NCBI GenBank assembly: GCA_034002925.1 | Contig: JAVEZP010000001.1 | Span: 66,523 to 130,522 of the forward strand | Source: Patescibacteria group bacterium | Lineage (GTDB): Bacteria; Patescibacteriota; Patescibacteriia; Patescibacteriales; UBA12465 | Length of the DNA stretch: 64,000 nt | Direction of reading: 5' to 3' | Shown: one piece after another, positions 39,675-59,551 of the stretch | Layout: every line of letters starts with the position of its first letter | Position numbering within the stretch: the stretch's first letter is position 1 | Translations under genes and position numbers: made by a program | The notes under the pieces: generated by a model | What the model was told of the DNA's origin: nothing | What the model saw: only the letters and a program-made list of their open reading frames with translations | Databases searched by the model: none

Positions 39675-41157
<1,483 letters not shown>

Positions 41158-44352: not shown

Positions 44353-44423
44353 CGGGGTGTAGTATAACGGTAGTACGCATGCATGGGGTGCATGTAGCCC
44401 GGGTTCAATTCCCGGCACCCCGA
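44353..44423 (+). tRNA. tRNA-Pro (anticodon GGG)
   Basis: Hand-folded. Acceptor cggggtg/caccccg (C1:G72, typical of tRNA-Pro). D stem gta/tac. Anticodon stem catgc/gcatg with loop aUGGGGu (U33, GGG, G37). T arm ccggg-ttcaatt-cccgg. Discriminator A. No encoded CCA. Confidence 0.8.
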
Positions 44424-44432
44424 CATAATGTC

Positions 44433-44505
44433 GGGCTTGTAGCTCATCTGGTAGAGCGCCGCATTCGCATTGCGGAGGCAAGGGGTTCAAGTCCCCTCAA
44501 GTCCA
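44433..44505 (+). tRNA. tRNA-Ala (anticodon CGC)
   Basis: Acceptor gggcttg/caagtcc with the G3:U70 Ala identity pair. D arm gctc/gagc. Anticodon stem ccgca/tgcgg with loop ttCGCat. T arm agggg-ttcaagt-cccct. Confidence 0.85.
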
Positions 44506-44515
44506 CCGCTAATGA

Positions 44516-44587
44516 CGGGCTGTGGTATAAAGGCTATTATACACGCTTCGGGTGCGTGTGATCCCGGTTCAATTCCGGGCAGCCCGA
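44516..44587 (+). tRNA. tRNA-Pro (anticodon CGG)
   Basis: Acceptor cgggctg/cagcccg (C1:G72). Anticodon stem cacgc/gcgtg with loop ttCGGgt (G37). T arm cccgg-ttcaatt-ccggg. Confidence 0.8.
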
Positions 44588-44593
44588 CAGTCT

Positions 44594-57611: not shown

Positions 57612-58838
57612 TTGACTCTAGCGAAAAATAATTATATATTTAATGGTTGCTCTAATCATAATTTAATCCTAATGCTTAATCTGGAAGAACAAATTAATAA
57701 ACAACTCCAAAAAGCCAACAACATCTTAATTGTCTTTAATTCAGATTGGGAAGGAGACGCTATTGCTTCATCTTTAGCTTTGTTTTTATTTCTAAAAAAA
57801 ATCAATAAAAATGTTGATATAGCAGCTGCTAAAAATTCCTTTATTGCTCCTGAAAAAAATGATAAACATCTTTGGCAATTTCTGCCATCCTTTCAGTCTA
57901 TTACCCACACCTTAGTTAACTTAAGAAAATTCATTGTTTCTCTAAATATTAAACAAGCCAGTATTAGTCAGATTAAATACAGCGTTGAAGGAGAAAAATT
58001 AAACTTTATTATTGCTCCCGAAAAAGGCTGGTTCAAACCAGAAGACGTAAGCTCACATTCTAGCGGCTTTAAATATGATTTAATCTTTTGTGTGGACAGC
58101 CCCGATTTAGAATCTCTTGGTAGTATTTATGATAATAATGTAGAATTTTTTCATAAAACTCCTATTATTAATATTGACCATCAAGCTGATAATGAAGAAT
58201 ATGGACAAATTAACTATTTAGATTTAAATCTCGCCTCTAGCGCAGAAATGATATATCGAATTATTAATAATCATAATTCAGAAATGATGAATGAAGATAT
58301 TGCCACTTGTCTATTAGCGGGCATCATTGCCAAAACTAAAAATTATAAAGTACCAAATTTAACCCCTCGTACACTTTTAACTAGCTCTAAATTAATCAGT
58401 GCCGGTGCTCGTAGAGAAGAAATAGTACAAAACATTTATCGTTCTCGTTCCTTAGAATCACTAAAAGCTTGGGGTCAAATATTAAGTAATTTAAATAATA
58501 GTAGTGAGTATAAATTAATTTGGTCAACTATTGAATTACAAGACTCTCAATCTTTAGATGATGAAATTTTTCACTTTGATGAATTAGCTGAAGAAATATT
58601 TAGCAGCTCTCCTCAGGCTCAAATATTTATATTACTCGCTAAATGTAAAAACAATAAAGAAGGCGAAATTCTAGCTTACGCCAATAAAGGCTATAGCGCT
58701 CACCATCTTTTAACTGAATGGCGGATAATTTACAAAAAACAACAGAAGGTTTTGGCTGATAATGTAACTATTAATGATAACTGGCCTCACGATTTATTAG
58801 AAAGTATCAAAAAACGTCTTGATAAAAATGTCCGCTGA
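57612..58838 (+). CDS. DHH-family phosphoesterase (NrnA/RecJ-like core with DHHA1-like C-terminus); motifs partly degenerate
   Basis: Motif I-like NSDWEGDAIAS, motif II CVDSPD, motif III NIDHQADN (DHQ in place of DHH), C-terminal GYSAHH region. Confidence 0.65.
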   Translation: MTLAKNNYIFNGCSNHNLILMLNLEEQINKQLQKANNILIVFNSDWEGDAIASSLALFLFLKKINKNVDIAAAKNSFIAPEKNDKHLWQFLPSFQSITHTLVNLRKFIVSLNIKQASISQIKYSVEGEKLNFIIAPEKGWFKPEDVSSHSSGFKYDLIFCVDSPDLESLGSIYDNNVEFFHKTPIINIDHQADNEEYGQINYLDLNLASSAEMIYRIINNHNSEMMNEDIATCLLAGIIAKTKNYKVPNLTPRTLLTSSKLISAGARREEIVQNIYRSRSLESLKAWGQILSNLNNSSEYKLIWSTIELQDSQSLDDEIFHFDELAEEIFSSSPQAQIFILLAKCKNNKEGEILAYANKGYSAHHLLTEWRIIYKKQQKVLADNVTINDNWPHDLLESIKKRLDKNVR

Positions 58839-58878
58839 TGATATAACAAAAAAGAAGTCTAGTCTAAGACTTCTAAAA

Positions 58879-58951
58879 GCGCCTATAGCTCAGGGGTTAG
58901 AGCACCGCTCTTATAAAGCGGGGGTCGATGGTTCAATTCCATCTAGGCGCA
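58879..58951 (+). tRNA. tRNA with anticodon UAU (AUA-decoding tRNA-Ile type)
   Basis: Acceptor gcgccta/taggcgc. D arm gctc-aggggtta-gagc. Anticodon stem ccgct/agcgg with loop cuUAUaa. T arm gatgg-ttcaatt-ccatc. Discriminator A. Confidence 0.75.
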
Positions 58952-58999
58952 CAAATACCGACTATTTAATTGCCGGCTTTTAATTTTATTAATTTCCTG

Positions 59000-59028
59000 T
59001 TGCCAAGTTTGCACCTATACAATATAAT
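59000..59028 (+). promoter_or_regulatory. Near-consensus sigma70 promoter (TTGCCA-N17-TATAAT) driving tRNA-Val
   Basis: ttgcca at 59000-59005, 17-nt spacer, tataat at 59023-59028, about 10 nt before the tRNA 5' end. Confidence 0.5.
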
Positions 59029-59038
59029 AAAGCATATA

Positions 59039-59112
59039 GGGCTCGTAGCTCAGCTGGTTAGAGCGTTACGTCGACATCGTAAAGGCCGCCCGTTCGAATC
59101 GGGCCGGGCCCA
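59039..59112 (+). tRNA. tRNA-Val (anticodon GAC) with C at position 33
   Basis: Acceptor gggctcg/cgggccc (one G-U). D arm gctc-agctggtta-gagc. Anticodon stem ttacg/cgtaa with loop uCGACau. T arm gcccg-ttcgaat-cgggc. Discriminator A. Confidence 0.75.
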
Positions 59113-59134
59113 CATTATTTTTTCTCTTTAATAT

Positions 59135-59551
59135 ATGCTTAAATTTTTCTCTAGCAAAAAAAATCATCTTATCAATACTGAAAACAATTCTAGTATTGGT
59201 GAATGGATAGAACAGGAACAAATCACAGAAGGACAACTATCTATTGATGTATATCAAACTAACAAAAAAATTGTTATTCAATCAACTATTGCTGGCGCTA
59301 AGGCTGAAGATTTAAAAATTTCTTTACATCACGATTTGCTCAGTATTCATGGCACCAGACAACAACCTCAAAAATTAGATGAAGATTCATATTTATATAG
59401 AGAGTGTTATTGGGGCCCATTTTCTCGCACTATTATCCTGCCCGCTGAAGTAGACAATCATAAAGTAGAGGCTGCTTTAGAAAATGGCGTTCTGACTATT
59501 ACTTTATATAAAAGTCAATCTGCTCAAATTCCTGTATCTTCTAAAAAATAA
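59135..59551 (+). CDS. Hsp20/alpha-crystallin family small heat-shock protein
   Basis: Alpha-crystallin domain pattern (LSIDVYQTNKKIVIQSTIAGAKAEDLKISLHHDLLSIHG...GPFSRTIILPAEVD...KVEAALENGVLTITL). Confidence 0.85.
   Translation: MLKFFSSKKNHLINTENNSSIGEWIEQEQITEGQLSIDVYQTNKKIVIQSTIAGAKAEDLKISLHHDLLSIHGTRQQPQKLDEDSYLYRECYWGPFSRTIILPAEVDNHKVEAALENGVLTITLYKSQSAQIPVSSKK

Follow-up and report, generated by a model that had tools for sequence, protein, structure and literature searches.

TilS is usually regarded as near-universal and essential in bacteria and was found in 98% of surveyed genomes (PMC6063277). A bacterial tRNA-Ile with the anticodon UAU encoded in its gene has been regarded as a rare exception, with counts of 9 to 19 species (PMC3575796, PMC4013482, PMC8450103), and was characterised experimentally in Mycoplasma mobile (Taniguchi et al. 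2013, PMC3575796). This organism has no tilS, U34 of the tRNA carries no modification, and IleRS (Arg865) as well as the ribosome show adaptations (PMC3575796); the tRNA-Ile2(UAU) of M. mobile is also named tRNA-Ile3(UAU) in tRNAscan-SE 2.0 (PMC8450103). Furthermore, metagenomes had yielded 371 unique tDNA-Ile(TAT) sequences by 2013, which were reported with no taxonomic assignment.

For the CPR (Patescibacteria), a reference point is the cultured Saccharibacterium Southlakia epibionticum, which encodes a TilS of 294 aa (PF01171) directly upstream of FtsH; this TilS was essential in two of three Tn-seq analyses (PMC10633639). The same organism has three genes annotated as tRNA-Met (CAU) within 5 kb and one tRNA-Ile in the rRNA operon, with no UAU tRNA (PMC10633639). 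Patescibacteria are thus not uniformly TilS-free, and Southlakia has the canonical system. A literature search, incomplete in its coverage, returned nothing relevant on tilS, lysidine, tRNA-Ile or AUA in the CPR, and the breadth and syntenic fixation of tRNA-Ile(UAU) in Patescibacteria appear to be undescribed in the searchable literature. Here, we analyse a gene that, judged from its sequence, very probably encodes a functional, vertically inherited tRNA-Ile(UAU) which reads AUA as isoleucine in a Falkowbacteria-related CPR bacterium.

The tRNA gene and its neighbourhood

The window, i.e., the whole 64 kb stretch of DNA that was analysed, has a GC content of about 34% and carries most of its genes on the minus strand. 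It encodes the aminoacyl-tRNA synthetases ValRS, PheST, HisRS and TrpRS, the proteins GyrA, TopA, RuvB, QueA, RelA/SpoT, Der and Pth, an LCP transferase, a VanW-domain protein, a ComEC-type metallo-beta-lactamase (MBL) and Hsp20, as well as several very large proteins without family matches. In-frame UGA never occurs in the window. The 16S rRNA gene (39676-41155, plus strand) stands alone, without 23S rRNA gene or spacer tRNAs, and the next gene is that of TrpRS on the opposite strand. Its 515F primer site reads GTGCCAGCAGCAGCGG, which is a mismatch to the standard primer. The lone 16S rRNA gene together with the gene content suggests a CPR chromosome, and this reading is confirmed by relatives that carry the same gene block. 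The block has the conserved order ValRS, DHH phosphoesterase, tRNA-Ile(UAU), tRNA-Val(GAC), Hsp20, VanW, MBL and was found in about 30 species genomes among the matches listed, where the closest syntenic relatives are Patescibacteria STC_82 (L088; ValRS 72% and Hsp20 66% identity) and Falkowbacteria GW2011_GWF2_43_32 (L093). The part of the block around the tRNA gene contains the following features:

57612..58838, plus strand: gene of a DHH-family (NrnA-like) phosphoesterase, the upstream syntenic anchor (weak NCBIfam NrnA match)
58853..58874, no strand assigned: 8-bp palindromic hairpin between the DHH stop codon and the 5' end of the tRNA (sequence scan)
58879..58951, plus strand: tRNA-Ile(UAU) gene, 73 nt, discriminator A73, no encoded CCA (ARAGORN, Rfam tRNA, fold, covariation)
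58912..58914, plus strand: anticodon TAT, positions 34-36 (read from the sequence; loop invariant in 42 distinct sequences)
59000..59028, plus strand: putative sigma-70-like promoter upstream of tRNA-Val, TTGCCA-17-TATAAT, 11/12 matches (consensus scan only)
59039..59113, plus strand: tRNA-Val(GAC), conserved downstream partner of tRNA-Ile(UAU) (ARAGORN; Rfam, local run)
59135..59551, plus strand: Hsp20 small heat-shock protein gene, the downstream syntenic anchor

The first-pass annotation had taken the cuUAUaa loop in an otherwise canonical tRNA as the mark of a tRNA-Ile(UAU), and this was borne out by ARAGORN, by Rfam and by direct reading of the sequence. ARAGORN calls a tRNA-Ile with anticodon tat at 58879-58952, one of five tRNAs in the window. 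In the whole-window search Rfam RF00005 matches 58879-58951 from end to end with 73.7 bits (E 3e-14), the top score among the tRNAs of the window. The anticodon loop reads CUUAUAA with C32 at 58910, U33 at 58911, U34 at 58912, A35 at 58913, U36 at 58914, A37 at 58915 and A38 at 58916. The minimum free energy fold is a perfect cloverleaf of -30.5 kcal/mol (z = -3.9), and none of 200 shuffled sequences was equally stable. A73, A37, A38, U12-A23 and C4-G69, which are isoleucine identity features by the E. coli rules, are all present, whereas G29-C41 differs from the E. coli identity pair C29-G41.

A different reading would make the gene non-functional or foreign, i.e., a pseudo-tRNA, a recent C34-to-T mutation, an assembly error or a tRNA borne by a phage or genomic island. 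Apart from a consensus scan in which no promoter site comparable to that of tRNA-Val was found directly upstream of tRNA-Ile(UAU), nothing speaks positively for it. Score, fold and stem pairing contradict a pseudo-tRNA. The identical 73 nt are also present in Logan contig L001 (9 kb, same organism) and in JGI contig L123, and T34 is not a sequencing or assembly error because the sequence is the same in these independent assemblies, three in total. In addition, no integrase or phage genes lie beside the tRNA in the window. Together with the conservation of pairing and position presented in the next section, this makes a defective or foreign gene extremely improbable.

The neighbouring features deserve some comments. 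Pfam DHH matches the identical copy of the upstream phosphoesterase gene on the Logan contig, and the hairpin that follows this gene is terminator-like on the minus strand only. The whole-window Rfam run at the gathering threshold missed tRNA-Val(GAC), which scored 63.2 bits when only 58800-59200 was searched. The idea that tRNA-Val(GAC) is defective was therefore rejected as the miss is an artefact of the speed filter, and for the same reason absences in whole-window Rfam runs are not to be trusted. This tRNA has C33 (loop UCGACAU) in place of the U33 that is near-universal in tRNAs, and the same base is found in JGI contig L123. Among 64 syntenic relatives, 62 have U33 and two have C33. With an otherwise good tRNA, C33 looks like a real, species-specific oddity. 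Elsewhere in the window, tRNA-Pro(GGG), tRNA-Ala(CGC) and tRNA-Pro(CGG) form a tight cluster (44353-44588, plus strand) in this genome of 34% GC. Anticodons that start with G or C are dropped by many small genomes, and the genome may rely on extra tRNA genes and not on wobble modifications.

Conservation of tRNA-Ile(UAU) across Patescibacteria

The distribution of the tRNA was analysed across GTDB species, each represented by one genome, with a search pattern that combined CTTATAA with D and T arms of the Ile-like type. This pattern matched at least 120 species genomes, and at least 72 of them bear record titles of CPR lineages. Among the matches listed these labels comprise Falkow-, Magasanik-, Komeili-, Kuenen-, Jackson-, Woese-, Shapiro- and Dojkabacteria as well as Doudna-, Sung-, Peri-/Peregrini- and Saccharibacteria, SR1, Parcubacteria and Paceibacteria. 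Also among the matches listed, 22 are labelled 'uncultured Gammaproteobacteria', 14 are unlabelled and 12 have other labels (Dormiibacterota, Chloroflexota, Ignavibacteria, Similichlamydia, Cytophagales, Flavobacterium, gut bins and Planctomycetota). The 118 distinct homologues among the matches listed have 98.5% of their stem cells paired and use three to six standard pair types at most positions of the acceptor and anticodon stems. tRNA-Val(GAC) accompanies the UAU tRNA in 33 of the 121 genome loci among the matches listed.

The 'uncultured Gammaproteobacteria' MAGs are TPA co-assemblies that serve as GTDB representatives. Among these MAGs and the one titled 'Planctomycetota' (L006, L007, L015, L019, L030, L050, L058, L059, L065, L069, L080, L087, L118 and others), several have the CPR synteny, with ValRS, DHH, tRNA-Ile(UAU), Hsp20 and VanW at 40-70% protein identity to the window. 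For those that share the CPR synteny, the Gammaproteobacteria title is almost certainly incorrect, and the Planctomycetota bin, which has this synteny too, is probably mislabelled as well. Two of the DHH homologues in the species genomes (L029:2196-3215, plus strand, and L050:6490-7581, minus strand) contain two in-frame stops each in translation table 11. They could be pseudogenes, or a stop codon could be recoded there, as happens in some CPR lineages.

Since the genomes in the pattern scan were chosen through the tRNA itself, a second, tRNA-independent set was built. An alignment of the upstream DHH protein was scanned against JGI metagenome contigs, which gave 80 loci with 517 kb of DNA, 70 of them with room downstream of the DHH gene. 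In 69 of these 70 loci a tRNA-Ile(UAU) is located at the same site, and T34 is present in all 69 syntenic homologues. A CAU tRNA at this site was found in none of the 80 loci. tRNA-Val(GAC) is present in 64 of the 80 loci, and Ile(UAU) and Val(GAC) are the only tRNA types in the 517 kb. The tRNAs found in this way comprise 42 distinct sequences with 99.7% of stem positions paired and with compensatory changes. The C32-A38 loop, A73 and U12-A23 are invariant in all 42 sequences and C4-G69 is conserved in 41 of them. The site is conserved in relatives with DHH identities from 95% down to about 31%, a position between housekeeping genes that does not fit a recently acquired or mobile tRNA.

The tRNA-Ile(UAU) at this locus is intact, under strong structural selection and fixed across the clade. 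With 98.5-99.7% of its stems paired and a fixed syntenic position, the gene must be an old one that has been passed on vertically and kept by strong purifying selection. The view that UAU isoacceptors are uncommon does not hold for Patescibacteria, given 69 of 70 at the locus and at least 120 species genomes.

Decoding of AUA and the fate of tilS

For the codon usage, 38 ORFs of the window with 18,632 codons were counted. ATA occurs 241 times, i.e., 12.9 per 1000 codons and 17% of the isoleucine codons, which is comparable to ATG with 16.4 per 1000. The dominant isoleucine codon is AUU with 53 per 1000, and the housekeeping genes show the same pattern as the whole ORF set. The expectation that AUA would be frequent thus stands as far as its use is substantial, but AUA stays far below the preferred AUU. 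The meaning of the codon was examined in a Codetta-style test with 44 ATA codons from six window genes, in which 2006 aligned cells were scored and only non-ATA codons of the relatives were used. The residues aligned to the ATA positions are I (33%), V (21%) and L (17%), with M below 3%. At the control positions, ATT/ATC align with I in 53-56% and ATG with M in 49%. AUA thus means isoleucine here, given that the residues opposite the ATA codons are I, V and L and not M.

These numbers bear on the alternative that the UAU tRNA is charged with methionine or another amino acid and that AUA does not mean isoleucine. Such a reassignment has precedents, as AUA stands for methionine in mitochondria, and U34 could in principle also read AUG. 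However, the residues at the ATA positions, the low share of M compared with the ATG control and the Ile-type features A73, C4-G69, U12-A23, A37 and A38 of the tRNA all argue against it. The Codetta screen, which covered more than 250,000 genomes, reported no AUA change in the CPR; its authors note that tRNA-Arg(ACG) appears to be lacking in the CPR. A reassignment of AUA is therefore very unlikely. The proposal that this tRNA decodes AUA as isoleucine is plausible, with Ile-type features in the tRNA and an AUA that behaves as an isoleucine codon, codon by codon.

The body of the tRNA gives a hint to its origin. The antisense strand of 58879-58952 matches Rfam RF04354 (Plastid-ycf2 5'UTR) over its full length with 55.9 bits (gathering score 65.7). 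The printed consensus of this family is the reverse complement of plastid trnI(CAU), a classic substrate of lysidine formation by TilS. RF04354 can therefore be used as a rough proxy for an Ile2 body, although it is not a curated isotype model. In eight other loci, seven of eight UAU tRNAs match it (L062, L099, L066, L102, L033, L103 and L017), compared to one of 16 CAU tRNAs and no other tRNA including tRNA-Ile(GAU). Matches of RF04354 to the antisense strand of Ile2-like tRNAs also probably give rise to false annotations of cis-regulatory elements. The isotype could not be told from pairwise identity to other CPR tRNAs, as Val, Ile, Lys, Ser and Leu tRNAs all share 50-57 of 73 positions. From the RF04354 matches we infer a body of the minor-isoleucine (Ile2) type, and with such a body the gene most likely derives from a tRNA-Ile2(CAU) by a C34-to-U change.

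The proposed course of events is that an ancestral tRNA-Ile2(CAU) would have become tRNA-Ile(UAU) by this single exchange, after which lysidine would no longer be needed. IleRS would charge the tRNA, for which A73, A37 (probably t6A), A38, U12-A23 and C4-G69 are present, and AUA would be read by a standard U-A pair at the wobble position. AUG might be avoided by an unmodified U34 in combination with an adapted IleRS and ribosome, by analogy to Mycoplasma mobile, or by some modification of U34. The first-pass annotation regarded a U34 modification as a requirement, which is not established; the tRNA-Ile(UAU) of M. mobile is unmodified (PMC3575796). No U34-modifying enzyme is encoded in the window. 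Two candidates were rejected, as QueA acts on tRNAs with G34 and the MnmE-like NCBIfam match belongs to the GTPase Der.

If the C34-to-U change made lysidine dispensable, tilS could have been lost. The search for tilS was done with phmmer using E. coli TilS and with an HMM derived from the N-domains of three TilS proteins (from E. coli, Geobacillus and Aquifex; PDB alignments) and covered all ORFs of the window, of 120 genome loci and of 80 metagenome loci. In the 64 kb window no TilS, IleRS or CAU tRNA was found. No TilS-like ORF was detected in the 1.44 Mb of UAU-linked DNA, in which about one tilS would be expected by chance, so that this negative result carries little weight. A match in locus L120 was rejected as QueC, and TilS-sized ORFs of 284-363 aa beside ftsH or tRNAs were identified as genes of ribosomal protein S1 and of XerC/D-type recombinases. 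IleRS was not found in the fetched loci either, where all matches are ValRS.

Further indirect evidence comes from the loci with ftsH, which tilS usually accompanies. Among the matches listed, 12 UAU loci hold ftsH and none of them holds tilS; this evidence is drawn from other CPR classes (Dojkabacteria and Saccharibacteria-labelled MAGs), and not from the clade studied here. In seven of the 12 loci (L020, L021, L027, L032, L061, L064 and L095) the UAU tRNA lies directly downstream of ftsH. The gene upstream of ftsH, where it could be read in the UAU loci, is that of ribosomal protein S1, a tRNA-Met or TruD, never TilS. Locus L095 belongs to a 4.4 Mb Chloroflexota chromosome with tRNA-Ile(UAU) directly 3' of ftsH, and in L027 the gene of the pseudouridine synthase TruD is divergent from ftsH. 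The Dojkabacteria loci L017, L033 and L103 have the order FtsH, tRNA-Met, EF-P, initiator tRNA, DivIC, XerC, tRNA-Ile(UAU), with L099 being similar. The neighbourhood matches that of Southlakia except that TilS is missing and that two CAU tRNAs and one UAU tRNA stand in place of three CAU tRNAs; the contrast is drawn from the published Southlakia gene table. In a protein search with FtsH of L017 none of the best 120 hits fell below 70% identity, and all those with an organism name came from Dojkabacteria.

The opposite possibility is that tilS and a tRNA-Ile2(CAU) are kept elsewhere in the genome and that the UAU tRNA serves as an auxiliary reader of AUA. The data cover 64 kb of the source genome, TilS is near-essential in at least one Patescibacterium, and one CAU tRNA adjoining a UAU tRNA (L066) also resembles the RF04354 Ile2 proxy. 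Moreover, tilS and tRNA-Ile(UAU) coexist in Lactobacillus casei, Cyanothece and Ferrimonas (PMC3575796). Against such a redundancy, all 15 loci with CAU tRNAs near the UAU gene among the matches listed have at most two of them, one initiator-like and one elongator-like, and tilS is missing from the ftsH neighbourhood of the 12 UAU loci described above. Fixation in 69 of 70 clade members also points to a gene that is indispensable and not accessory, and redundant systems are seldom retained in the small genomes of the CPR. We regard an auxiliary role beside a retained TilS as unlikely, if still a serious option. A tRNA-Ile(UAU) that acts as the main or sole decoder of AUA in this lineage, after loss of tilS, is the reading we moderately favour, and to the same degree we expect the source genome to lack tilS.

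Implications and comparison with known systems

The gene is ordinary for its lineage, and it is the lineage-wide pattern that is notable: in one of the largest bacterial radiations, a conserved site of the chromosome normally holds a UAU tRNA. Whether large parts of the CPR have dispensed with TilS and lysidine and decode AUA by an encoded UAU tRNA is in our view evenly balanced. The TilS-free groups would then include this Falkowbacteria-like clade, Parcubacteria/Paceibacteria, Microgenomates (Woese- and Shapirobacteria), Peregrinibacteria/Peribacteria, SR1 and Dojkabacteria, while Saccharibacteria such as Southlakia would have kept TilS. If so, the CPR would be by far the largest TilS-free bacterial group. 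This would agree with a broader tendency of the CPR to use additional tRNA genes in place of anticodon modifications, for which the apparent lack of tRNA-Arg(ACG) is an example, and would imply a lineage-wide solution that keeps U34 from reading AUG.

If tilS is truly absent, lysidine-free decoding of AUA would be common in nature, and the CPR would offer many natural variants of IleRS and ribosome that discriminate AUA from AUG with U34. Antibacterial ideas that target TilS and marker sets based on TilS would be inapplicable to these organisms. For annotation, a 'missing' tRNA-Ile2(CAU) in a CPR MAG need not signal an incomplete genome.

Among the described systems the gene is a further example of the established bacterial tRNA-Ile(UAU) of the M. 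mobile kind. Both have an encoded UAU on an Ile-type body with A37 and A38, a presumed lysidine-free reading of AUA and a small, AT-rich, reduced genome. However, M. mobile belongs to another phylum and is a single species, whereas the tRNA described here is an ancient one with a fixed syntenic position and occurs in many CPR lineages of class rank. The absence of tilS, the unmodified U34 and IleRS Arg865 were shown in M. mobile, while the system here is known from the tRNA gene.

A replacement of CAU/TilS by a UAU tRNA at the level of whole clades, as proposed here, is also seen in Bifidobacterium and Neorickettsia (PMC3575796, PMC8450103). There the UAU tRNA is linked to a eukaryote-type IleRS, whereas the fetched CPR loci contain no IleRS. 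As a hint, the published table for Southlakia lists its IleRS without a C-terminal Pfam domain of the zinc-finger type, and this species uses TilS (PMC10633639).

The tRNA-Ile2(CAU)/TilS system, represented by E. coli ileX, plastid trnI(CAU) and Southlakia, does the same AUA job, the RF04354 proxy suggests an Ile2-like body for the tRNA-Ile(UAU) too, and the UAU tRNA of Dojkabacteria occupies the same genomic neighbourhood as the CAU tRNAs of Southlakia. The tRNA-Ile(UAU) itself cannot be a TilS substrate as its position 34 is T and not C. A suppressor of a tilS deletion in B. subtilis shows that TilS becomes dispensable when one exchange turns an anticodon into UAU (Fabret 2011; Kohrer 2014, PMC3919564); this was a laboratory event in a different tRNA background, whereas the UAU state in the CPR is natural and ancient. 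Finally, tRNA-Ile(UAU) of Nanoarchaeum equitans and Korarchaeum provides a parallel in ultra-small or deep-branching prokaryotes in which UAU replaces a modified-C system (PMC8450103). These organisms are archaea, and there UAU replaces TiaS/agmatidine and not TilS.
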